Below, piece by piece: positions 1,495 to 24,688 of a DNA stretch of 64,000 bases. Under the pieces are notes generated by a model, which did no database searches, was not told the DNA's origin, and saw nothing but the letters and a program-made list of their open reading frames with translations. Location: the NCBI GenBank assembly GCA_965247115.1, contig CBDFGR010000002.1, positions 256,001 through 320,000 on the forward strand, given 5' to 3'. A program made the position numbers and the translations under genes. Numbering within the stretch: position 1 is the first letter of the stretch; each line of letters opens with the position of its first letter. This DNA comes from Myxococcota bacterium. GTDB taxonomy: Bacteria; Myxococcota_A; UBA9160; SZUA-336.

Positions 1495-2550
1495 CTACGC
1501 GGACGGCCCGTCCTTGGTGTCGATGCGGATCGTGGCGAAGTCCGCAGCTCCACCGCCGGTGTTGAACTGCGGCTTGCTCATCCCGACGACGATCCCGGCC
1601 GCGACGCCTTGCTCGTTGCCGTAGTCGTCGAGAGACTCCGCCCAGTTGAGGAATGTCCCCCCACCGAAGGCCTGGCGCCGGACGCGCGGTAGCGCGTTGC
1701 CGAAGGCCACAACCATCGACTGCGCACCCATGAGGAGCGCGTGCGAGCGATTCCCGGCGTCACCGATCGCGATCACCAGTCTCGGCAGGTAGTCGCTCGA
1801 GTGGATGATCACGTCGTTGTAGATGCCGAGCGCGCCGGTGAAGAGTGGATTTCGGCTCCCGCGAGGACTCGAGTCCCGGTGAAGTTGCTGCCACTCGGTA
1901 GTCCGCTTGAGCGCGGTCTCCTGGAACGGCGTGAGGTACATGACGTACATCTGCCGCCCCTCGACCATTGCAGGTCGGATCGTCGGCACGGCCGTCCGCG
2001 CCTTCTCCTTCGCGAAATCGATGTACTCGAGCGTGAACGTCGCCGTCGTCGCATCGATCTTGTGCTCCGCGTCCGGAGCGCGCAGCGCGTTACCTGCGAA
2101 AGGGAGGGCGGTCGAGAGAGTACCGTACGCGATTCCGCACGCATAGGCGAACAGGAACTCGTCCAGGATCACCGCCCAGCGGTTGCGCAGGTTGCGCCGC
2201 GCATCCTCGCGCAGGTCGTGGACCGTGCGCTGCTGCGACATGCCCTTGAACTCGTGCGCGAGCCGCTTCTGGTCGATCAGCAGGCTGTCCTGGTAGTACC
2301 GGAGAGCCTCGCCCTTCCCCTTCAGGCGCTCGTCGCCGTCGACGCCGTAGCCCTGAAACTGTACGAGCAGATCGAACTTGACCTGGTCGCCCGCCCCTCG
2401 CTGCAGCTCGTCGAGCCGCTGCACGATGGCGGTGTCCGTCGTTCCCATGAGCTGTCGAAACCGAGTCTGGAGGATCGCCTCGATGAAGGTGACCCGACTC
2501 CAGACCTTTACCGTCTGGGGATCGTTCGTCCCGAATTCGGTGAAGGCCAA
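1495..2550 (-). CDS. Major capsid protein, N4-gp56/DUF4043-like
   Basis: TEFGTNDPQTVKVWS, GAGDQVKFDL, SQQRTVHDLR, NPLFTGALGIYNDVIIH, DYGNEQG motifs; TTG start behind GGAGG. Confidence 0.88.
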   Translation of the reverse strand: MAFTEFGTNDPQTVKVWSRVTFIEAILQTRFRQLMGTTDTAIVQRLDELQRGAGDQVKFDLLVQFQGYGVDGDERLKGKGEALRYYQDSLLIDQKRLAHEFKGMSQQRTVHDLREDARRNLRNRWAVILDEFLFAYACGIAYGTLSTALPFAGNALRAPDAEHKIDATTATFTLEYIDFAKEKARTAVPTIRPAMVEGRQMYVMYLTPFQETALKRTTEWQQLHRDSSPRGSRNPLFTGALGIYNDVIIHSSDYLPRLVIAIGDAGNRSHALLMGAQSMVVAFGNALPRVRRQAFGGGTFLNWAESLDDYGNEQGVAAGIVVGMSKPQFNTGGGAADFATIRIDTKDGPSA

Positions 2551-2727
2551 AACCAACCCTCCTGGTGGAAGTCACTCGCCATGTCTGTCTGCGAGAGATG
2601 CACTCTGCATCTCCCAGTTCCAGATCGGCTCTGGCGAAGCCACTTCACGGATTGGTTAGGCCCGTGCGCCCACGTCCGGTTTAGGTTCCGGCAACCACGT
2701 CACGGCTTCTCGGCGCCGTGCAGCCTT

Positions 2728-4279: not shown

Positions 4280-6433
4280 CTAGATGCCGGGGCGTACGCC
4301 GCGGTCGGCTTCGGCCAGCATTCGCGCATCGAGCGCGATCTCTGGGTTCAACACGGGATCCTGCAGGCGCGTCTCTTCCTCCATGTCCGCGAAGCGGAGG
4401 AAGTCGCCAAGGGTCTCGAGCAGCACCTGCTTCTCGTCGTCGTCGGCCTTCTGGTACACCGCGAGCAGCCGCGCCAGGAAATCGCGCTCGCTCTTTAGGT
4501 CCTGGACGAGCTCGAGCTGGGTGTTGTGGCGCTCTCGCTCCTCGAGTTCGCCAGCCTTGAGCTGCGTCTCGAGCTTCTGGATCGCCATGTCGGAGGCCAG
4601 CTTCGCCGACAGCTGCTGCTGCGACTGGCTCGTCTGCTCGGCCTGCGCGCGATTCAGCGCCTCGATGTGAGCTACCAGTCTGTTCCGCTTGTCTTGCGCG
4701 ATCGGCAGCTGATCGACGAGCACGGTCGGATCGATCGGCACCTGGAACTGCACCATCTGCAGCATGATCTGGAGCTGCAGGAGCGAGATGGTCGTGTTCG
4801 CAGCCGTTAGATCCAGCTCGATGTCCCACTCCATGTCGGCCAGGCCCGAGATCCGCGCGGACTCCTGGGTCGTGAGGTCCGTGACGACGCCGTCCCGGAC
4901 GCGCCAGCGGTTTGGATTCCCGAGCATGGCCTCGATCTGATTGTCCGGCAGCACGTTCACGATGATGTCGATGACAGCCTCGAGCTGACGTTTCTGGTAA
5001 CTCTGGTAGTTCTGCAGGTTCTTCGTGATCGCCATGATCGATCGGCGGTAACGCAAAAGCGCGGTGGTCGCGGGCTCGTTCGCCGCACGATCGCCCAGCA
5101 TGGTGTCGATATTCACGCCCGAAATCCGGAAGAACATCTGAAGTGCGCGGTCTGCCATTTCAGCGGAAGCGCTGGGCATCGTTGGCACCTCCCGCTTCTG
5201 GATCTTGCCTGCAGCCAAAGCGCCAGTCTTGAGCTTCGTGATCGCTCCGGCGGTCCTCATCGTTGTCTCCGCGTCGTCGTCATCCACGAACGCGTCGGCC
5301 TCGGCGAAAACACCGGGCATCACCTGAGTGTTTAGCATGTGCAGCGTCTGCGAGTGACGCTTGTTGATCTCTTTCTGCGGGTCGACCAGGTCGCGGATCA
5401 ACCCGCGCGGCTCGCCGGTCAGATGATCGCGGTCGCAGACGTACGCCTTGATGGAGAAGCCGCGCATCGGTACGGGCTGCACGTCGTCGAAAAGAATTTT
5501 CGTGCCGATGAGCTCGAGCCAACGGATCTCTTCCTCCCATACCGCCGAGAACTCGATCGGCAGGCCTGCCTGGCGGAATATGCGGAAATTCCGTTCGCTG
5601 ATGCGTTCGGCCTTTCGAGTGTTCGGATTCAACGCATAGAAGCGTCGCACCGACTGGCGATATTCCACGTGGAGCACTCGAATCAGTCGACGTCGTCGGT
5701 CGAAGTAGAGCGTGTCTTCCGCAGCACCGGGTAGATCCAGCGGACTCGTCGGCTGCACGTGGAGCTCTTGGCTCGTCTCGGGGATCTCGCGATACCCGAT
5801 ACCCGAGTGCACCCGCTCGAGCTCGAAGATCTCGCGCACCTCGGCTGCGTGCTGGGGGAACTCTTGCGCGAACTCCCCTTCTCGTAGCCATCGGTTCCAG
5901 ATGATGAACTGTGCATCCCGGAGATCTCGACGCTGAGCGCCTGGATCGATGAGGATCTCGAAGGGGTGGACGGGGTCGATGGTGAAGTCCAGAAACATCG
6001 GATTGCCGGCGCGCGGGTTCACGTCGACGACCGTGTACCCGATGCCGCCGATGCAGCCCTTCTCGAAGGCCTCCGAGTCGGCGAAATCCGCGTCTGTTTG
6101 ACGACGGATTGCCTTCCAGAGCCGGTTGAAGATCATCGCGCGAAACTGATCTTCGGGCCCGACGGGCATGGCACGGGCTTCCCGCTTCGCATCCTCGTGC
6201 GCGCCGATCATCTCGCGGATCACGACCTGCTGCAGGTTGAACGTCAGAGCAGGGCGATTCTGATCTTTCAGCACCGCGAGATCTTCGGGATCCCACTGGT
6301 TCTCGCCGCCGGAGTGGAAACGAAAATCCCGCCGCATCGTGAGGAACCACTTGTTCCACACATCGAGGGTCTGCGTGAAGAGGTTCCGAGCCGCTACGAG
6401 CTTCTGCTCTTCTGTCAGGCCGTGAAAGAACAT
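4280..6433 (-). CDS. Portal protein (P22-like)
   Basis: 717 aa; GENQWDPEDLAVLKDQNRPALTFN and GLIRDLVDPQKEINKRHSQ motifs; long C-terminal coiled coil. Confidence 0.88.
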   Translation of the reverse strand: MFFHGLTEEQKLVAARNLFTQTLDVWNKWFLTMRRDFRFHSGGENQWDPEDLAVLKDQNRPALTFNLQQVVIREMIGAHEDAKREARAMPVGPEDQFRAMIFNRLWKAIRRQTDADFADSEAFEKGCIGGIGYTVVDVNPRAGNPMFLDFTIDPVHPFEILIDPGAQRRDLRDAQFIIWNRWLREGEFAQEFPQHAAEVREIFELERVHSGIGYREIPETSQELHVQPTSPLDLPGAAEDTLYFDRRRRLIRVLHVEYRQSVRRFYALNPNTRKAERISERNFRIFRQAGLPIEFSAVWEEEIRWLELIGTKILFDDVQPVPMRGFSIKAYVCDRDHLTGEPRGLIRDLVDPQKEINKRHSQTLHMLNTQVMPGVFAEADAFVDDDDAETTMRTAGAITKLKTGALAAGKIQKREVPTMPSASAEMADRALQMFFRISGVNIDTMLGDRAANEPATTALLRYRRSIMAITKNLQNYQSYQKRQLEAVIDIIVNVLPDNQIEAMLGNPNRWRVRDGVVTDLTTQESARISGLADMEWDIELDLTAANTTISLLQLQIMLQMVQFQVPIDPTVLVDQLPIAQDKRNRLVAHIEALNRAQAEQTSQSQQQLSAKLASDMAIQKLETQLKAGELEERERHNTQLELVQDLKSERDFLARLLAVYQKADDDEKQVLLETLGDFLRFADMEEETRLQDPVLNPEIALDARMLAEADRGVRPGI

Positions 6434-6989: not shown

Positions 6990-8579
6990 CTATGCGGACA
7001 TGAACGAACGCGGCCGTGATCGCGTGCGCCCTCTCATCCGCTGAACCTTGGTTTCGATCGACGCCTGCTCGGCCGCGATCACCGAGTAGTTGAACGAGTG
7101 GCGGAAATCGTCGTTCTTCACGCCCTTGCAGCGCCACTTCGCTGTCGGATCCCCGGTCCTCGGGTCCTCCTCGAGGATGCGCACCAGGTTCTTCATCTGC
7201 GGCATGATGAGATCGCGGAACTGCCGGTCTGGCCGTGGCAGCTCCACCAGCTTGGCCACGATGATCTTGTGCGAAGCGTCAAGGCTCTCGGTGCGATTCA
7301 CGTTCACCATCCGAGACTTCGGATCCCAGAGGTAGCTCTCCTTGCGGTGCGCGTCGTAGAGGCAGCCCCACCAGCCGGACTCGGTCTTCACGAAGTCGCG
7401 GACCGCGCGCGTCTCGGCGCCGGCGTCCATGACTCCGATCTCTACCTTGTAGCGCTGATTGAGGTCGTGGACGTCTTGGAAGCTCTCGGCGACATGAAAC
7501 GCATGGATGCGGCGGTGCGTTTCGCTCCGTCTCGAACCGACGGTGTAGTAGATGTACTTCTTGCCAACGTCGGCGCCGGCAAACGACGGACCCTCGTACG
7601 CGAGTCGGCGCGGGTTGGTTCCGCAGCACGCAAGGATCGCGGCGTCGTCGAGGCTCTGCTCGATGTCCGCGTAGGGCTGCCCGAGATTGGAGTTGTAGAA
7701 CTCGGACATCACGGTGCGCGGGTCCTTCCATCTCTCGTAGAGATCGTTCAGGTCGACCGTCGGGGAATTCAGCTGGGAGATGTAATAGCCGCGCCTCTTT
7801 CGCGAAGGATGGGCCGGCACCCACTCGCCGTCGATCGTGTAGACCTCGGCGCTGCAGTGTGTACAGATCTTGATGACCCCTCGATCTTCGGTCTCCAGGA
7901 GGCACCCGGGGAACTCGTCCTCAAGACAGGTCCAGCGAGCGCAGCTTCGGCACTTGATCTTCCACTGGCGCATGTCGGTGCGAAGGTACTCAAAGTGGAT
8001 CCCGTACTCCGGGAACGTCGGAGTCGAGAGCTTAAACTCGTGTGCGAGATCCGAGCCCGATAGCCGCTCGCGCGCGAGAGCCACCATCTCGGGAGTCATC
8101 TCATCGAACTCGTCGTAGACGACGCAGTCGACCGGGATCGACTTCAGCCCTGTCCGGGCCTTCGCCCCGCGGAAGTAGAGGAAACAGTTGCCGATCTGCT
8201 TCACGTTCGCCGAGTCCGTCCCGTGCACCGTGTCTCGGAGGGCCGGGTTGTCTTGGAGCATCCGGTCGAACCGGGTACGCGAGAAGTCCGTGACATCTTC
8301 CCGTGTAGGGAAGAGGTAGAGGATCCCCCGGTTGTAGAGCCGGTCAGCGCGATCGATTGTGCGAAGGACCTCGAGAGTCGTGAACCCCATCTGCGCGCCC
8401 TTCATGATCACGACCTGCTCGCTCTCGTCGTCATCGTAGAGCTCCCAGAGATAGGGGTAGGGCTTGAGATCGAAGTTGACGCCGTCCACCTTCAGCGGCG
8501 GGTTCGTCTTGGAGAGCCGATACGCCGTCGATTGCTGGAGGAGCGTCTCGTGCAGCTGCTGGTCGGTCATTGCCCTCAT
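6990..8579 (-). CDS. Terminase large subunit, lambda gpA-like
   Basis: Walker A variant KGAQMGFT, Walker B VVYDEFD, STPT motif, CxxC..CxxC, nuclease GADVG. Confidence 0.9.
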   Translation of the reverse strand: MRAMTDQQLHETLLQQSTAYRLSKTNPPLKVDGVNFDLKPYPYLWELYDDDESEQVVIMKGAQMGFTTLEVLRTIDRADRLYNRGILYLFPTREDVTDFSRTRFDRMLQDNPALRDTVHGTDSANVKQIGNCFLYFRGAKARTGLKSIPVDCVVYDEFDEMTPEMVALARERLSGSDLAHEFKLSTPTFPEYGIHFEYLRTDMRQWKIKCRSCARWTCLEDEFPGCLLETEDRGVIKICTHCSAEVYTIDGEWVPAHPSRKRRGYYISQLNSPTVDLNDLYERWKDPRTVMSEFYNSNLGQPYADIEQSLDDAAILACCGTNPRRLAYEGPSFAGADVGKKYIYYTVGSRRSETHRRIHAFHVAESFQDVHDLNQRYKVEIGVMDAGAETRAVRDFVKTESGWWGCLYDAHRKESYLWDPKSRMVNVNRTESLDASHKIIVAKLVELPRPDRQFRDLIMPQMKNLVRILEEDPRTGDPTAKWRCKGVKNDDFRHSFNYSVIAAEQASIETKVQRMRGRTRSRPRSFMSA

Positions 8580-8890: not shown

Positions 8891-9502
8891 TCACGGGTCG
8901 TGAGAACGAAACGATTCGTCTTCTTCTTCATACAGTCCTCGAGGCAGCCATGGCACGCCTGAAGCTTCACCCCGTAGCCGTAGCGAGACAGCTCTCGAAG
9001 ACAAGACAGCCACCGGAACCTGAACCTCCGGGTCAGGATCGCCGGATTGCTCGCACGCGATCGCTGCGTTCGCCCACATGACCTCTTCCCGCACGCACCG
9101 GATCGCAGTAGTGACGTCTGGGCCCGCAGGCGCATGGTCCCGGATGACGCTCGACATCGCGTACCCCGAGCTCCGGATCGCCTCGAAGCGCAGAGCGACG
9201 TTCGGATCCGGATGGTTCTGCGGAGAGTGGTACGTGAACCAGTTCTCCAGGTTCGAATCGGGAACACGGCGACCCCGAGGAGGAGTGCCGCGGGCCGCCG
9301 CCGGGCTGTTCGTGAGCTTCACGCCGCGCGGCAGCTCCACGACGTTGCCATCCGACGCAAGGCACAAGTAGAACTCGATGGTTTCGCGGAGGGCCTGCCC
9401 GCAGTTGTCGTCCGCGGTCGCGGGCGGCTTCCGCTTGATTTCGTCGTAAAGCGGCCGCAGCTGCTCGAGGAGCTCCTGCGGGCTCATTCTCCCATCAGAC
9501 AA
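8891..9502 (-). CDS. Protein with central Acb2/Tad1-like helical hairpin domain
   Basis: NWFTYHSP...RFEAIR...IRDHAPAGPDVTTAIRCVREEVMWANAAIA at residues ~84-151. Confidence 0.7.
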   Translation of the reverse strand: MSDGRMSPQELLEQLRPLYDEIKRKPPATADDNCGQALRETIEFYLCLASDGNVVELPRGVKLTNSPAAARGTPPRGRRVPDSNLENWFTYHSPQNHPDPNVALRFEAIRSSGYAMSSVIRDHAPAGPDVTTAIRCVREEVMWANAAIACEQSGDPDPEVQVPVAVLSSRAVSLRLRGEASGVPWLPRGLYEEEDESFRSHDP

Positions 9503-18773: not shown

Positions 18774-19583
18774 ATGCCCGATCCCGCCCCTTCCCCTCCC
18801 GACCCGAGGCATCCTCTCCCCGACCGTCTCGCCCAGCTGGACTCCCTGCACCTGAACACAGGTGCCTCCTCAAGCTTCGACGAAGGCCACTGCGCGCTCG
18901 AGGTGGTCGCCTGGCTCGCAGGGGAGGAGCACAGCGACCATCCGCAGTGCACGAGTGCCGTGGTCGGAGACTTCGTCCGCTGCTGGAATGACAACCTTTT
19001 AGACGAGGATCGAGACCGTCTGCTCAAGCCCCTGCTCCCCCGCCTCGTGGGATCGGAAGGAGATCCCGACACGGAGCTCGCCCGCTCCTACCTAGCCCTC
19101 GACTGGCTCTGCCGGGTCCATACGCCCGCATGGCTGGATCTCGTGGAGAGTCTGAGCCCGCATGCCGCGAAGCTGCGCGGACTCGGCGAGATCACGGACC
19201 TCGTTCGTGCAAGCGCGGCGCAGCCGATGATCCGTGCTGCGAGGGACGCTGCGGGGGACGCTGCGAGGGACGCTGTGGGGGCCGCTGCGGGGGACGCTGC
19301 GAGGGACGCTGTGGGGGCCGCTGCGGGGGCCGCTGCGAGGGTCGCTGCGTGGGACGCTGTGGGGGCCGCTGCGGGGGCCGCTGCGAGGGTCGCTGCGGGA
19401 GCCGCTGTGGGGGCCGCTGCGGGGGACGCTGCGAGGGTCGCTGCGGGAGCCGCGGCGGGGGCCGATGCGAGGGTCACCGCGTGGGACGCTGCGAGTGCCG
19501 CGCTCGAGCCGACCGTGCTCACGCTCCAGGATTCGGCACGCGATCTCGTTTGTCGAATGCTCGCGGTGGGGGAGTCCGCATGA
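18774..19583 (+). CDS. Phage protein with Ala-rich tetrapeptide repeat (AARD/AAWD)
   Basis: CALEVVAWLAGEEHSDHPQC N-domain plus 22 tetrapeptide units. Confidence 0.8.
   Translation: MPDPAPSPPDPRHPLPDRLAQLDSLHLNTGASSSFDEGHCALEVVAWLAGEEHSDHPQCTSAVVGDFVRCWNDNLLDEDRDRLLKPLLPRLVGSEGDPDTELARSYLALDWLCRVHTPAWLDLVESLSPHAAKLRGLGEITDLVRASAAQPMIRAARDAAGDAARDAVGAAAGDAARDAVGAAAGAAARVAAWDAVGAAAGAAARVAAGAAVGAAAGDAARVAAGAAAGADARVTAWDAASAALEPTVLTLQDSARDLVCRMLAVGESA
19236..19499 (+). repeat. 12-bp tandem repeat, 22 degenerate units (GCTGCGRGGGHC-like)
   Basis: Directly visible; encodes AARD AAGD AVGA AAGA AARV AAWD. Confidence 0.95.
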
Positions 19584-20482
19584 CTCCCTCCTCCCCTCTC
19601 CGCAGCGATCTGAAGAGATGGGCGAGAGAGTCGAAGCCAGGCGTCTACCGTGGCCTCTCCGAGACCGAGTACGACGCGATCGACGCGGTCCGCAGCACGA
19701 AGCTCAGCTACTTCGCCGACGGTAGGACGCCCGCGCACGCGAAGTACCTGATCGACCACCCTCCGCCCCCGAAGGATCACCTCGACATCGGCGCCGCTCT
19801 GCACTGCGCCGTGCTCGAGCCGGAGAAGTTCGACGACGAGTGGGTCGTCGCTCCTAAGGTCGACCGCCGCTACAAGAAGGACAAGGCCATCTGGGCCGAG
19901 TTCGAGGCGGAGAACGCGGGCAAGGGGATTCTGAAGCGCCAGGACATGAACCTGGTCTTGGCGATGCGCGACGGGGTCAACCGGAACGAGCTCGCGCGCC
20001 GGCTGCTGAAGGGGGCGGGGCAGAACGAGCTCACGCTTGTTTGGGAGGACGAGCAGTCGGGTCTGCTTTGCAAGGCGAGACTCGACCGGATCACGGAGTA
20101 CGAGGGCTACGTCATCGTCGTCGACCTGAAGACGACGGCGCGGCTCGCTTCCAAGGAAGCGTTCGCGCGAGCGATGGGAGACTTCGGCTACCACCGTCAG
20201 GAGGCGTTCTACCGGATGGCGATGGACGCGCATTTCGGCGAGATGCCGCGTCGGTTCGTCTTCATCGTGATCGAGAAGGCGGCTCCGCACATCGTCGCGA
20301 CGCATGAGACCGGGCCGGAGTCTCTCGATGCGGGTCAGCGTGAAGTGCGCACGCATCTGACGGAGTACGCCGCGTGTACGGAGTCGGGCGTCTGGCCTGG
20401 ATACGGAACGTCGACGCTACTGACCGAGCTGCCACCGTGGCGGCTGCGACGAGTCGAAAGAGACGAAGAGGTCGTGTTTTGA
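19580..20482 (+). CDS. RecE/exonuclease VIII-like PD-(D/E)XK exonuclease (DUF3799-type)
   Basis: GAALHCAVLEPEKF, CKARLD, VDLKTT, FGYHRQEAFY, WPGY; ATGA overlap. Confidence 0.9.
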   Translation: MTPSSPLRSDLKRWARESKPGVYRGLSETEYDAIDAVRSTKLSYFADGRTPAHAKYLIDHPPPPKDHLDIGAALHCAVLEPEKFDDEWVVAPKVDRRYKKDKAIWAEFEAENAGKGILKRQDMNLVLAMRDGVNRNELARRLLKGAGQNELTLVWEDEQSGLLCKARLDRITEYEGYVIVVDLKTTARLASKEAFARAMGDFGYHRQEAFYRMAMDAHFGEMPRRFVFIVIEKAAPHIVATHETGPESLDAGQREVRTHLTEYAACTESGVWPGYGTSTLLTELPPWRLRRVERDEEVVF

Positions 20483-21555
20483 ACTGCAAGAGCTGCAACG
20501 CCCCGGAGGGCTCCCCGCACGGAACAAACTGCAAGGTTCACCCTCCGGGCTCCAGCGAAGAGAAGCCCGAGATGGAGGAGCAACGCGGGGTCGCCACGAT
20601 CGACGATTCCACTGGGGCGATCGCGGACATGAGCGAGGGCGGGCTGCGTCCGACCAACGCAAAGGAGCTCGCCGCGCTCGCGAAGCAGGCGGCCCTCTCG
20701 AGCCTGGTTCCCGAGCCCTTCCGCAACAAGCCGAACGACTGCTTCGTCGCGATGGCGATGGGGAGAGAGATCGGCTTCGACGCGTTCCAGAGCTTGCAGA
20801 TGTTTCACGTCGTCAAGGGGAAGGTAGGTCTTCCCGGCGAGGCGATGGTGGCGATCATCCGGAGTCGCGAAGAGTGCGAGTCGCTCAGGATGGGCACCGA
20901 GGGGTCGCTCGAGGATGGAAACCTTACGGGGTGGGTCGTCTCAAAGCGGCGCGGTCAATCTGAGAACGACAAGGTGACCTTCAGTCTAGAGGACGCGATG
21001 CTGGCTGGGCTCTACCCCGGCAAGAAGGATCGCAACGGCGAGCCGAGCGTCTGGTCAAAGTACCCGAAGGACATGCTCATCTGGAAGGCCGTAGCGCGCG
21101 ACTGCCGACGGAACTGGGCCGACATGACCCGGCGTGTTCCCGTCGCTGAGGACATGCCCGGCTACGGCGAGTCAAGGCTTGAGATCAACGTCACACCGCC
21201 GCGCGAGGAGACTCCGACGGCGGACCCGGCTCGTGCACTCTTCGCGGGTGAGTCGATCGAGCCTGAGATCGTCGGACCCGAGGGGCCCGGCGGTCCCGCT
21301 GCACCGAACGCAGAGCCTGCGAACGCCGGGACGCCCTCTGACGATGCGAATGCAACGGGTCGCCCGGCTCCGAGTGAGGGATCCAGTGAGGCCACGCCGG
21401 AGCCGGGACTTCCCAACGAGGACGGCCCGAAGTTCTCGGCGCTACCCGAGGACTTCGACCCGAGTCGCGACAACTGCCCCGACTGCGAGCGCACGGCTGA
21501 TCTCGGTCACAACCCGGGGTGCTCCATCGCGAAGCTGCTGAAGGAGCAGAGGTGA
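20479..21555 (+). CDS. RecT/Bet-like ssDNA annealing protein
   Basis: SSLVPEPFRNKPNDCFVAMAMGREIG, VTFSLEDAMLAGL, WSKYPKDML; follows RecE. Confidence 0.85.
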   Translation: MNCKSCNAPEGSPHGTNCKVHPPGSSEEKPEMEEQRGVATIDDSTGAIADMSEGGLRPTNAKELAALAKQAALSSLVPEPFRNKPNDCFVAMAMGREIGFDAFQSLQMFHVVKGKVGLPGEAMVAIIRSREECESLRMGTEGSLEDGNLTGWVVSKRRGQSENDKVTFSLEDAMLAGLYPGKKDRNGEPSVWSKYPKDMLIWKAVARDCRRNWADMTRRVPVAEDMPGYGESRLEINVTPPREETPTADPARALFAGESIEPEIVGPEGPGGPAAPNAEPANAGTPSDDANATGRPAPSEGSSEATPEPGLPNEDGPKFSALPEDFDPSRDNCPDCERTADLGHNPGCSIAKLLKEQR

Positions 21556-21740
21556 CACGAACCACCGACCAAGAGTTGGTCGACCGCGTCCCCTGTGAGG
21601 GCTCCGAGGACTGCGAGCAACTGGTCGATCGCGACGGCTTCCGTCTCTGCGCCGAGCATATGAAGGAGGCATGGGACGGGATGGAGGAAGCGGAGAACAC
21701 GCCTCCGTCTCGCAGACCGAGGCGAAGAGATGGCAACTGA
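21552..21740 (+). CDS. Small hypothetical protein
   Basis: GTGA overlap and AAGGAG RBS; C..C..CxxH. Confidence 0.5.
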   Translation: MTRTTDQELVDRVPCEGSEDCEQLVDRDGFRLCAEHMKEAWDGMEEAENTPPSRRPRRRDGN

Positions 21741-21819
21741 GCCGACGGCTCGACTTGCCATGATCTGCGGTGTGGTCTGGTATGGTGCGATCCAGCTTGT
21801 GGGAACGCTCGTGCCATGA
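21730..21819 (+). CDS. 29-aa hydrophobic peptide
   Basis: MATEPTARLAMICGVVWYGAIQLVGTLVP; bridges the gap and ends in an ATGA overlap with xis. Confidence 0.4.
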   Translation: MATEPTARLAMICGVVWYGAIQLVGTLVP

Positions 21820-22073
21820 AGGACCCGTGCTGGAGTCTCGATCAGTGTGCAGAGTTCCTTCAGTGCAGCACCAAGACCGTGCGAAAGATGATGAGGGGCG
21901 GATTCCCGCACTTCTACGTGGGCCGGAGACCTCGGTTCCGTCCGGAGGCGGTAAGGGAGTGGGTGCATGAGCAAGAACGGAGTCGCCCCCATAGCCTCAC
22001 CGTCGCTGCGGATCGAATCCGGGAGTCCCGTGTCCAGGAGCGCATCCTGAGAAGAGCCGCCCGTGTCTCGTAA
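21816..22073 (+). CDS. Excisionase-like HTH protein
   Basis: WSLDQCAEFLQCSTKTVRKM...PHFYVGRRPRF; overlaps integrase start. Confidence 0.85.
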   Translation: MKDPCWSLDQCAEFLQCSTKTVRKMMRGGFPHFYVGRRPRFRPEAVREWVHEQERSRPHSLTVAADRIRESRVQERILRRAARVS

Positions 22074-23412
22074 GGCAGACGGCCCTCGAATCTTCAAGCG
22101 TGGCGCGCACTACTACGTGGAGTACGTAGAAGGCAACGAGATACTCATCCCCCGTCAGTCCCTCCGGACCAAAGACGCCGGGAAAGCAAGGGCCGCTGCG
22201 TCGAGGCTCATCCTGGAGTATGAAGAGCGCGGCTACACACCAGAGGGTGACGAGCTCCTCTTCCGAGACGCAGCCGCCGCCTACCTCAAGCACGGGATGT
22301 CGAACCTGGCAGGTACAACGCAGGATGACCACAGAAATCATCTCCGTCTTGGCGGAATGCTGGACCGGGCTTTTGGCGACATCCCGATATCTCAACTCAC
22401 GGATGAGTCGCTACTCCGGTGGTGGGAAGAGAGCATCGAGGGGAAGCGAGCGACAAGTACGGGACGGCGATATCTCGATAGCGTCTCGGCAATTATGCGC
22501 CGAGCCCGTCGTCACCGGCTCATCGTGCACAATCCCGTCGTAGACTTTCAGGCCATTATCCGGGAGGAGAACAAGACCAAGAAGGGCAGAGCTCTAAGTG
22601 AGGCGGGGAAGCATGTCCGGCCTATTGAGGACCCCGCGGAAATCGAACGCATCCTTGCTTCGGCCCGAGAGGAGAGTCTAGAAGATCACGTGCTGGTGCT
22701 GCTCATGCTCGACGCTGGACTGCGCATCGGAGAAGCCATGCAGATCCGCTGGCGGGCAGTCAACTGGGGAGAGGACGAGAACGACCTAGGCCGCAGCCTC
22801 GAGATCTCGGAGTCGAACCCCAGAGGCATGTACCCCGGTGATCCACCCAAGAGTGGGAGGACGCGCTATGTGGATCTCTCCAGGCGGCTACGACGGGTCC
22901 TGATGGAGCTCTACACACAAGAGTTCCGGCCCAGCCCGGATCGTGTCATTGTGCCGCGCGACCAGGGCAACTGGAGGCAGAGGCAGTGGCGCAGAATCCT
23001 GGCGCGTGCCGGGACCACTCGAGCGTGGCGACCGAAAGATCTGCGCGACACCTTCGCGAGCCAGCTGCTCTCGAATGGTCAGGAGCTCGTGCACATCGCC
23101 GACCAGCTGGGCCATTCGTCCGTGGGCGTGACGGAGCGTCACTACACCAAGTACATCCGTCGCAAGAGGTATCAGCCGACACCGCCACTAGCCTATGGCG
23201 AGCTCCCGACGGACGCGCTGGCTCGGCTTGGCGCGCCCAATAAACGTCCACAAAGCGGACACTCGGGGTTTTCAGACCAACACGCTCCTGGCGACAGTGC
23301 AGAAACTGTTAGCAATGTCGCGGGCTTCCGTGGTGAGCGCGGCCGGGATCGAACCGGCGACCGGCGGATTCGGAGTCCGCAAGGATCAGGTCTCGCAGCG
23401 TCCGGTCCTTGA
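22063..23412 (+). CDS. int: Tyrosine integrase
   Basis: GLRIGE, PKSG, KDLRDTFAS (K in place of H), LGH, HY catalytic motifs; tail reads across att. Confidence 0.95.
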   Translation: MSRKADGPRIFKRGAHYYVEYVEGNEILIPRQSLRTKDAGKARAAASRLILEYEERGYTPEGDELLFRDAAAAYLKHGMSNLAGTTQDDHRNHLRLGGMLDRAFGDIPISQLTDESLLRWWEESIEGKRATSTGRRYLDSVSAIMRRARRHRLIVHNPVVDFQAIIREENKTKKGRALSEAGKHVRPIEDPAEIERILASAREESLEDHVLVLLMLDAGLRIGEAMQIRWRAVNWGEDENDLGRSLEISESNPRGMYPGDPPKSGRTRYVDLSRRLRRVLMELYTQEFRPSPDRVIVPRDQGNWRQRQWRRILARAGTTRAWRPKDLRDTFASQLLSNGQELVHIADQLGHSSVGVTERHYTKYIRRKRYQPTPPLAYGELPTDALARLGAPNKRPQSGHSGFSDQHAPGDSAETVSNVAGFRGERGRDRTGDRRIRSPQGSGLAASGP

Positions 23413-24688
23413 GGCGCTCCGCGACGGCGCGGCCGATCGACGCCAGGACATCGTCGACGCCGGAAGACGCCGGCAAGCGCCGCGGGCCCTGCAGGGTCCT
23501 GTTCCCTTCGCGTCTGACGGCATCGAGAATCTGCGCGACGTCGACGAGCTCGGGCGCCCGACCGGGCATGTACGAGAGCTCGGGACCTGCGGCGTTGAGC
23601 AGCAGCCCGTGTCGCTCGAGCGACAGCAGGACGTCTTCTACCAGATCGATCGAGATCCCGCTCCAGCGTGCCAGAGCCCGCAGCGTCTCCGGCGCGCCGC
23701 CGGCAAAGTGCGCTCGACCGATCCGGGTCATCAGCAGCAGCGCCAGCTTCTCCCGGTCCTGGCCCGACAGGAGCCGAGCTTCTCCCTCGGGAGTGAGCTG
23801 CTCGGGGTACTGTACGTAGAAGGCGAGACGCGCCCCGATCAGCAGGATGAGCCAGCTCACGTAGAGCCACATGAGGAACAGGATCAGCACGGCGAAGCCG
23901 GAGTAGATGGCCGTGTAACGCGTGGATGACGCGACCACAGTCGCAAAGCCGAAGCCCAGGCCCTCCCAGAGAGCTCCGGCAACCACGCCGCCGATCAGCG
24001 CCGCACGCAGCTGCACCTTCGCATTCGGCACGAACGCGTACACGAACGTGAACGCCGCGATTACCAAAAGATAAGGAACGAGCTCTCTCACCATATCGAC
24101 GGCGCTGCCGAGCGCCTGTACTTCCGTGAGGCGCTGAACGGCGGAGGCGCCCGCAAGCGAGGCCGTGAGTCCGATCGCCGAGAACATCAGCACGGGACCT
24201 ACCATCACGACGGAGAGGTAGTTGCTGAAGCGCTGACCCAGGCTGCGACTCTGACGCGTGTGCCACGCGTAGTTGAACGAGCCCTCGATCTTTTGAATCA
24301 GGGAGATAACCGTGTAGAGCAGCATGGCAAGGCCGAGAGAGCCCAGGATGCCGACGCGCATGTTGTCGACGAAGCCGATCACGTTCTGGCTGATGTCTGC
24401 GCCTCTCTCGCCGAGGGGCGCGAGAAAGCGCAGCAGGAGTGGCTCGATCTGGTTGTGCACGCCGAAGCCTTTGAGCACGGAGAAGCTCAGCGCAAGCAGC
24501 GGGACGAGCGAGAGCAGGCTCGTATAGACGAGACTCATGGCGTGGAGGGTCAGCTGGCCCTCTCGAATATCCACGACGAGCGCGTATACCGTGCGCAGCG
24601 CCCGCATTCCCAGGGCACTCAGCGCGGGCCGTCCGGCGAGATCTACGCGCCAGATCGCGCGCTCGATGACGTCACCCAGGCCCCTCAT
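23309..24688 (-). CDS. YihY/BrkB-family membrane protein with C-terminal winged helix; extreme C-terminus phage-derived
   Basis: AMSLVYTSLLSLVPLLA, IEGSFNYAW, AIYSGFAVLILFLMWLYVSW. Confidence 0.92.
   Translation of the reverse strand: MRGLGDVIERAIWRVDLAGRPALSALGMRALRTVYALVVDIREGQLTLHAMSLVYTSLLSLVPLLALSFSVLKGFGVHNQIEPLLLRFLAPLGERGADISQNVIGFVDNMRVGILGSLGLAMLLYTVISLIQKIEGSFNYAWHTRQSRSLGQRFSNYLSVVMVGPVLMFSAIGLTASLAGASAVQRLTEVQALGSAVDMVRELVPYLLVIAAFTFVYAFVPNAKVQLRAALIGGVVAGALWEGLGFGFATVVASSTRYTAIYSGFAVLILFLMWLYVSWLILLIGARLAFYVQYPEQLTPEGEARLLSGQDREKLALLLMTRIGRAHFAGGAPETLRALARWSGISIDLVEDVLLSLERHGLLLNAAGPELSYMPGRAPELVDVAQILDAVRREGNRTLQGPRRLPASSGVDDVLASIGRAVAERLKDRTLRDLILADSESAGRRFDPGRAHHGSPRHC
23331..23380 (-). 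other. att site: 3' half of tRNA-Arg(CCG)-like gene, 5' half absent
   Basis: Minus strand GCGGA-CTCCGAA-TCCGC CGGTC GCCGG-TTCGATC-CCGGC CGCGCTC A CCA; no D arm or 5' acceptor strand upstream. Confidence 0.9.

Follow-up and report, generated by a model that had tools for sequence, protein, structure and literature searches.

In the anticodon-centred ('A' subsite) class of islands in tRNA genes (tDNA) described with Islander, a tyrosine integrase gene lies beside the attachment (att) site, and the attachment site of the element, attP, carries the tRNA sequence from the anticodon loop to the 3' end (PMC4383910). In ICEBs1 of Bacillus subtilis the primary chromosomal site, attB, is reported as a 17-bp stem-loop in a tRNA gene, a 7-bp spacer being flanked by 5-bp inverted repeats. 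The secondary sites of this element, found within protein genes, are 2-3 bases off attB, the crossover takes place in the spacer, and ends formed from unlike spacers differ (Menard & Grossman 2013, PMC3715440). The mycobacteriophage Fionnbharth, when its tRNA gene was inactivated, gave rare lysogens at four secondary attB sites, all of them in non-essential protein-coding genes (PMC10865867). In lambda, identity of the overlap is described as normally governing partner choice, and in site affinity (saf) mutants an altered attP overlap shifts preference to an equally altered site (PMC2817482). Here a ~44-kb prophage is described that sits in the 3' end of yihY in an uncultured Myxococcota bacterium (genome G000: 5.17 Mb, three contigs C1, C2 and C3, 66% GC). 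The window analysed, 64,000 nt in length, is C2:256001-320000. The integrase of this prophage likely inserted it at a mimic of the anticodon stem-loop of tRNA-Lys(CTT), a reading to which we assign a probability of about 0.88. The features of the window on which it depends are the following.

1 to 23364, no strand: right-hand 23.4 kb of the ~44-kb prophage, delimited by the far end that was found and by the phage genes present.
22063 to 23412, plus strand: tyrosine integrase open reading frame (ORF), 449 aa, with PF00589 at residues 191-363 (E 3.5e-20) and PF22022 at 67-162.
23309 to 24688, minus strand: yihY fusion ORF, BrkB-family membrane protein, 459 aa, with PF03631 at residues 43-293.
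23331 to 23380, minus strand: tRNA-like 3' half, a chimera whose left part is yihY codons and the rest phage-borne tRNA-Lys(CTT) 3' sequence.
23331 to 23364, minus strand: phage-borne tRNA-Lys 3' segment (end of the anticodon stem, variable loop, T arm, acceptor strand, CCA), the unambiguous part.
23364 to 23380, minus strand: core of the left attachment site (attL), 17 bp, made of a 5-bp arm, the 7-bp spacer CTCCGAA and a 5-bp arm; counterpart of the tRNA-Lys anticodon stem-loop.
23365 to 23375, minus strand: 11-bp core CTCCGAATCCG, a direct repeat of C2:235392-235402 at the far end; the crossover lies somewhere inside it.

The sequence-only reading of this DNA had reported an orphan tRNA 3' half fused to yihY at the end of a prophage, and this half is real. 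It is 50 nt long, has no 5' half and is directly preceded by yihY codons. By eye it comprises an anticodon stem-loop, variable loop, T arm, acceptor 3' strand, discriminator and CCA, starting at the 5' strand of the anticodon stem, with its 3' end oriented toward the integrase gene. The 50-nt string occurs once in the window and has no match in 100 shuffles. ARAGORN, run on the whole 64-kb window, called no tRNA gene, and Rfam returned only a sub-threshold tRNA-clan match in the region of the half (22 bits; gathering score 47). On the minus strand the yihY reading frame (...TLRDLILADSES...) occupies the sequence upstream of 23380, and its codons GCG GAC TCC GAA (A-D-S-E) make up the apparent 'anticodon arm'. 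The convergent yihY fusion and integrase ORFs overlap by 104 nt (23309-23412). In the sub-threshold Rfam alignment (window 23335-23419, minus strand) GAGCGC of the yihY coding sequence is paired with the acceptor 3' strand of the fragment, which yields a tRNA-like outline with an oversized D region; this pairing is most likely due to chance (22 bits, E 0.027 on 231 bases).

The prophage occupies C2:235403-279364, bounded by the 11-bp direct repeat, and begins ~20.6 kb left of the window. At its far end (the right attachment site, attR) the phage arm is followed by the 11-bp core at C2:235392-235402 and then by 32 codons and a stop, which in the yihY frame encode the native tail SESEAPGASQRLSLEEGNTPGELGNPPTAGETRAS. 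A short core followed by the yihY tail had been predicted for this end, and that is the arrangement found: no displaced tRNA fragment with tRNA-locus flanks is present there, and the two ends share 11 bp only before the yihY tail begins. At attL the order is yihY codons, GCGGA-CTCCGAA-TCCG, the phage-borne tRNA-Lys 3' segment and the integrase gene. The two junctions are reciprocal and conservative, with no bases lost or added. In a genome of the same genus (G002) yihY is uninterrupted, as the sequence-only reading had proposed to check in a phage-free relative: the protein has 459 aa, runs through ...LILADS... and ends in ...MRELILADSNPEASAANQRLSLGERSASR, with neither a prophage nor a tRNA at that place.

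Read-derived contigs represent the locus in both the occupied and the empty state. Parts of window 22800-24000 were present in 18 runs; the best holders, X13 and X14, are one sample, and X16 and X17 come from two other studies. The attL junction is bridged by a 44-nt X13 contig (window 23351-23394) that extends 14 nt beyond the junction on the yihY side. The attR junction is covered by a 1417-nt X14 contig over L019:300-839 with 0 differences, and also by a 66-nt X13 contig (L019:774-839). Contigs of the best-matching sample thus bridge both ends, which argues against misassembly. The empty site appears in run X17 on a 2928-nt contig, where L019:300-803 lies at positions 876-1379 and window 23365-24000 at 1369-2004; this contig lacks the prophage, has the 11-bp core once only and is ~98-99% identical over the aligned stretches. 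In run X16 a 765-nt contig joins the yihY tail flank to the yihY body via a single core copy, and a second yihY allele (...ADSEPEAP...) is also present. The two other studies thus contain near-identical strains in which the site is uninterrupted. It follows from the empty-site contigs that the 16 bases GCGGACTCCGAATCCG, the 'CCG anticodon' included, are native yihY sequence. A 19-nt loose end at 23365 in run X13 suggests an empty-site path in the source sample (excision or mixed cells), and no claim is made from it.

The tRNA in question is tRNA-Lys(CTT). The 50-nt half is identical at 48 of 50 positions to the 3' half of the genome's single tRNA-Lys(CTT) gene (C3:2634119-2634194), and the differences are two anticodon bases, TT>CG. 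The initial label, anticodon CCG of a tRNA-Arg, was therefore wrong, since the CCG corresponds to the native yihY codons seen in the empty-site contigs. An origin from tRNA-Arg(CCG) was considered and rejected, since the half bears no sequence relation to the tRNA-Arg(CCG) that the genome does have (C3:954056-954133). Nor does the anticodon-arm part come from the phage, a second point of the initial reading that needs correction. Its source is yihY, and unambiguous phage DNA is confined to the bases 3' of the 11-bp core. The segment 23331-23364 is identical across all four integrase-proximal junctions of the assembly and tRNA-Lys. Across 185,579 species genomes, the 40-nt 3' part has only one exact match, the tRNA-Lys(CTT) gene of a Myxococcota metagenome-assembled genome.

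The tRNA-Lys(CTT) gene of the genome is itself occupied by a sister prophage. An integrase arm with 98% identity to window 21320-23380 follows it, and the crossover region there carries CTT. A displaced tRNA-Lys 3' fragment (C3:2564454-2564493) extends from the first anticodon-loop base to CCA and adjoins a phage arm, to which the arm ending at C2:235403 is 93.6% identical. At the sister prophage the block of phage/tRNA identity runs from the first anticodon-loop base to the tRNA 3' end, and the same phage arm ends the window's prophage. Ten homologous integrase loci were compared, the sister copy (98%) and nine homologues (38-44%), two of the ten being in this genome and eight in relatives. 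A complete tRNA gene lies within ~120 nt of the integrase 3' end at all ten, in convergent orientation at nine. Because tRNA genes adjoin all these loci and the sister is at tRNA-Lys(CTT), the integrase is of the anticodon-centred tRNA-gene integrator type, and tRNA-Lys(CTT) is the canonical site of this integrase type in the genome. A distance of 70 kb separates the tRNA-Lys gene from the displaced fragment, and the two are inverted relative to each other, which is what an inversion between prophage copies would produce.

The native yihY site resembles the tRNA-Lys anticodon hairpin in sequence and in layout, with two 5-bp inverted repeats around a 7-bp spacer. The yihY 17-mer GCGGA-CTCCGAA-TCCGA matches the tRNA-Lys GCGGA-CTCTTAA-TCCGC at 14 of 17 bases (left arm 5/5, spacer 5/7, right arm 4/5). 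The attL 17-mer itself has two mismatches to that of tRNA-Lys, both within the anticodon. By manual count, 3 of 17 bases are mismatched in the yihY of this strain and 6 of 17 in both the G002 allele and the second X16 allele. The resemblance is thus allele-specific, being weaker in the sister species and in another strain, and the change of N-P to E-S, two codons in a dispensable tail of the protein, would have given the phage a landing site. The motif GCGGACTCNNAATCCG occurs four times in the genome (0.07 expected), each time at an att-type junction, and the 11-mer core occurs 11 times (3.7 expected).

A secondary attB in the yihY 3' end, as first proposed, is supported by the yihY tail at the far end, the uninterrupted G002 gene, the empty-site contigs and the bridged junctions, with the mimicked tRNA corrected to Lys(CTT). 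If the integrase acts as at anticodon-centred tDNA sites and at the ICEBs1 attB, it would attach to the two 5-bp inverted repeats (in tRNA-Lys, the anticodon stem) and exchange strands across the 7-bp loop, so that attP would have recombined with the yihY look-alike. The sister prophage at the primary site may have favoured the use of a secondary one. The event is best described as a natural integration, at a secondary (or retargeted) site in the yihY 3' end, of a prophage that targets tRNA-Lys; events of this kind are already known. Its documentation is unusually complete: both ends, the empty site, a sister at the primary site and allele dependence are all available.

The closest described systems each match this locus in part. 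ICEBs1 shares with it a tyrosine integrase, the stem-loop layout of attB and secondary sites in protein genes, but it is a conjugative element whose secondary insertions were, in the published account, forced in the laboratory by deletion of attB (PMC3715440). The yihY case is natural, concerns a phage whose primary site is held by a sister prophage, and has the same spacer at both ends. Fionnbharth is likewise a phage whose integrase targets an anticodon loop, that of tRNA-Lys, and uses secondary sites in protein genes. However, as reported, those sites share only a 3-bp CTT with the core, were used at <1e-5 of the wild-type lysogenization frequency and were laboratory-selected (PMC10865867). 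The yihY site, which comes from an environmental genome, has 14 of 17 bases in common with the core. Lambda differs in that its attB is not in a tRNA gene and its saf mutants are described as laboratory-isolated (PMC2817482); here the overlap change is deduced from two prophage ends. The sister prophage at tRNA-Lys fits the Islander 'A' subsite description (PMC4383910) fully, but the window copy does not: no tRNA is regenerated at its integrase-proximal end, and no displaced tDNA fragment lies at the far end.

That a tRNA-targeting integrase can land in a protein gene which happens to spell an anticodon hairpin is known chiefly from crosses forced in the laboratory, and the present locus shows it in nature, in an uncultured bacterium. 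An orphan 'tRNA half' beside an integrase does not necessarily imply a decayed tRNA locus, and what looks like the anticodon of such a half can belong to the coding sequence of the host. Programs that detect islands by matching a tRNA to its displaced fragment should miss prophages of this type.

Several observations weigh against secondary-site integration as set out above. The contig bridging attL has a yihY side shorter than the 31 nt by which a bridge was counted. The assembly is interrupted at related prophages, so repeats are a source of trouble in other parts of it. A further nine 17-mers of the genome likewise differ from the tRNA-Lys core at 3 positions (14 are expected by composition). 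The idea that yihY is the genome's single best mimic was rejected for this reason, and as these sites mismatch equally, mimicry alone does not explain the choice of yihY. The dependence of the insertion on the integrase is something we infer. Free attP was found in neither viral nor metagenome collections: exact scans for the attP junction (phage arm and core, with either spacer) gave 0 matches each in metagenome_contigs and viral_contigs, the CCG version of the tRNA segment had 0 in metagenome_contigs, the 40-nt 3' part had 0 in viral_contigs, and no attP was seen among the matches listed from the read tables. Finally, both attL and attR carry the yihY spacer CTCCGAA (CCG, not CTT). An extra step is therefore needed, because an attP with the CTT spacer is expected to give unlike ends. 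Either the incoming attP would already have had the CCG spacer, or the heteroduplex would have been repaired toward the yihY version.

The first of these options leads to a refinement of the secondary-site reading and not a true rival: yihY would be the cognate attB of a retargeted lineage, an ancestor of which would have gone through a CTCCGAA site once and captured that spacer into its attP, as in the lambda 'site affinity' mutants. We regard this as having slightly less than an even chance. Such an attP would match yihY at 16 of 17 bases, and at 7 of 7 in the spacer. The presence of CTCCGAA at both ends, where an attP with the CTT spacer would be expected to leave unlike spacers judging by the ICEBs1 report (PMC3715440), suggests that the attP of the incoming phage was already adapted to yihY, and the behaviour of lambda saf mutants as described (PMC2817482) agrees with this. 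So does the count of CCG in three of the four integrase-proximal cores of the assembly. On the other hand, repair of a heteroduplex toward the yihY version gives identical end sequences, and the scans reported above returned no attP with the CCG spacer.

The two CCG cores outside yihY (C3:5943-7341 = C1:1-1403) bear on the same question. Both continue from the core and integrase arm into a 553-nt module, in which the final ~100 nt of a gene for an RHS protein are followed by a small secreted-looking gene (a C-terminal/immunity module). A native paralogue of the module, 95% identical, lies at C3:677925-678489 (L034:2426-2990), at the end of a 1034-aa RHS ORF. At C3:678478 this paralogue has ...CGGACTCCGAA exactly where the homology stops, with CCGGACTCCGAA at the homology break, which favours retargeting. 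Against it, both RHS-linked junctions probably represent a single locus that was assembled two times, since C1:1-1353 and C3:5989-7341 are 100% identical. The RHS-linked junction may be a third non-tRNA site, or host DNA taken up by the phage. With its unknown arm read either as a third attB or as a phage arm, a partner junction is missing, and the assembly is broken at this place. No partner junction of it was found in the assembly, and no CTCCGAA or CTCTTAA site was present at a homology break in C1:40000-50000, where a second core of the C1 prophage was sought at its far end. A somewhat more tentative extension, which we rate a little below the refinement itself, is that the lineage has been caught in the course of changing its integration specificity, its attP having been rewritten by an earlier passage through a look-alike site so that it now prefers a protein gene. 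On this view the rewritten core is also the one joined to the RHS toxin-tail/immunity module, in which CTCCGAA occurs as well. If the spacer was indeed captured into attP, it provides a testable path for the evolution of integration specificities. A retargeted lineage, if true, would be a natural counterpart of the lambda 'site affinity' mutants and a route by which tRNA-targeting integrases reach protein-gene targets.

The remaining explanations fare much worse. Illegitimate recombination independent of the integrase, via the 11-bp microhomology between phage and yihY, is improbable. An identity of 11 bp suffices for rare joins, and the 11-mer is overrepresented in the genome as given above. 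However, the join is reciprocal and conservative, both products are present and no bases were lost or added; it also falls exactly at the phage's own att core beside the integrase gene and keeps the stem-spacer-stem layout. A tRNA gene formerly located downstream of yihY might have been the target of canonical integration, with later deletion of the tRNA 5' half and the yihY end, which would likewise leave an orphan 3' half beside the integrase gene. We consider this course of events very improbable, as the far end is the yihY tail and not a displaced tRNA fragment, the empty sites (X16, X17) and G002 have no tRNA there, and the 16 bases at the junction are native yihY codons. An assembly artefact joining a prophage copy to yihY, which the several phage copies at 98-99.9% identity and the position of all unresolved contig ends inside them might invite, is equally implausible given that both reciprocal junctions lie on one contig in the correct order and orientation and both recur on independent short-read contigs.

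With secondary-site (or retargeted) integration retained, the consequences for the host gene appear small. Because the phage arm supplies tRNA sequence and not yihY, 32 native C-terminal residues were lost in exchange for 18 unrelated ones (AGRRFDPGRAHHGSPRHC), encoded by the tRNA segment and phage DNA; the fusion protein ends in ...LRDLILADSESAGRRFDPGRAHHGSPRHC. The exchanged residues lie beyond both predicted domains, that is PF03631 and a weak Rrf2-like winged-helix match at residues 315-435 that is below the Pfam cutoff, and the replaced tail is poorly conserved even inside the genus. The insertion is therefore probably near-neutral. It had been proposed that the last yihY residues were replaced without destruction of the ORF, and the 459-aa fusion with both predicted domains intact bears this out. 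A 64-nt repeat (92% identity) is found just left of the far att site, at C2:235255-235318, and again 970 kb away at C2:1204421-1204484. The first copy takes in the end of the yihY tail (codons for ...AGETRAS and the stop) and the start of the next gene, and the other lies at the end of a desaturase-like gene. In G002 the desaturase is just downstream of yihY. The yihY tail region was thus rearranged in this lineage before the phage arrived.

The integrase gene is present in four copies in the genome (98-100% identical), and in the window its 3' end adjoins the tRNA segment, so that the tyrosine recombinase catalytic domain is encoded beside the att site. The window ORF has no stop before the att core and continues antisense through the tRNA segment into yihY, which gives it its 449 aa. 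In the C1 copy (C1:1350-2750) the stop is a TGA from the complement of the tRNA's ...TCACCA end, and the ORF of the C3 copy (C3:4600-6300) continues into the RHS-linked arm. The C-terminus of the integrase is therefore set by the location of the phage. The prophage also encodes methylases, and its other identified genes in the window are these.

21816 to 22073, plus strand: small HTH_17 protein (PF12728, E 2e-7) just upstream of the integrase gene, candidate excisionase judging from its position.
19130 to 20482, plus strand: PD-(D/E)XK nuclease (DUF3799; PF12684, E 7e-30) of the phage recombination exonuclease type, with an N-terminal 12-nt tandem repeat.
6990 to 8579, minus strand: terminase large subunit (PF05876, E 4e-24).
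4280 to 6433, minus strand: P22-type portal protein (PF16510, E 2e-73).
1495 to 2556, minus strand: major capsid protein (PF13252, E 4e-48).

Some minor observations concern the assembly and the prophage. The end of C1 equals the start of C2 (2412 nt, 100%), and the end of C2 and both ends of C3 are inside phage copies of 98-99.9% identity; the three contigs fit one circle in the order C2, reverse C3, C1. A 1285-nt element (e.g. C1:304588-305872) has at least 30 copies of 99.8-100% identity across the three contigs and is probably a very active insertion sequence. The run of 12-nt units in the 5' part of the DUF3799 ORF (window 19164-19547) belongs to repeat family D1, with 21 overlapping 132-nt copies mostly offset by 12 nt, and similar runs are present in other prophage copies. 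A prophage ORF at 8891-9502 (minus strand) weakly matches the Acb2/Tad1 hairpin domain of anti-defence sponge proteins (E 2e-4, 21.7 bits, cutoff 27).

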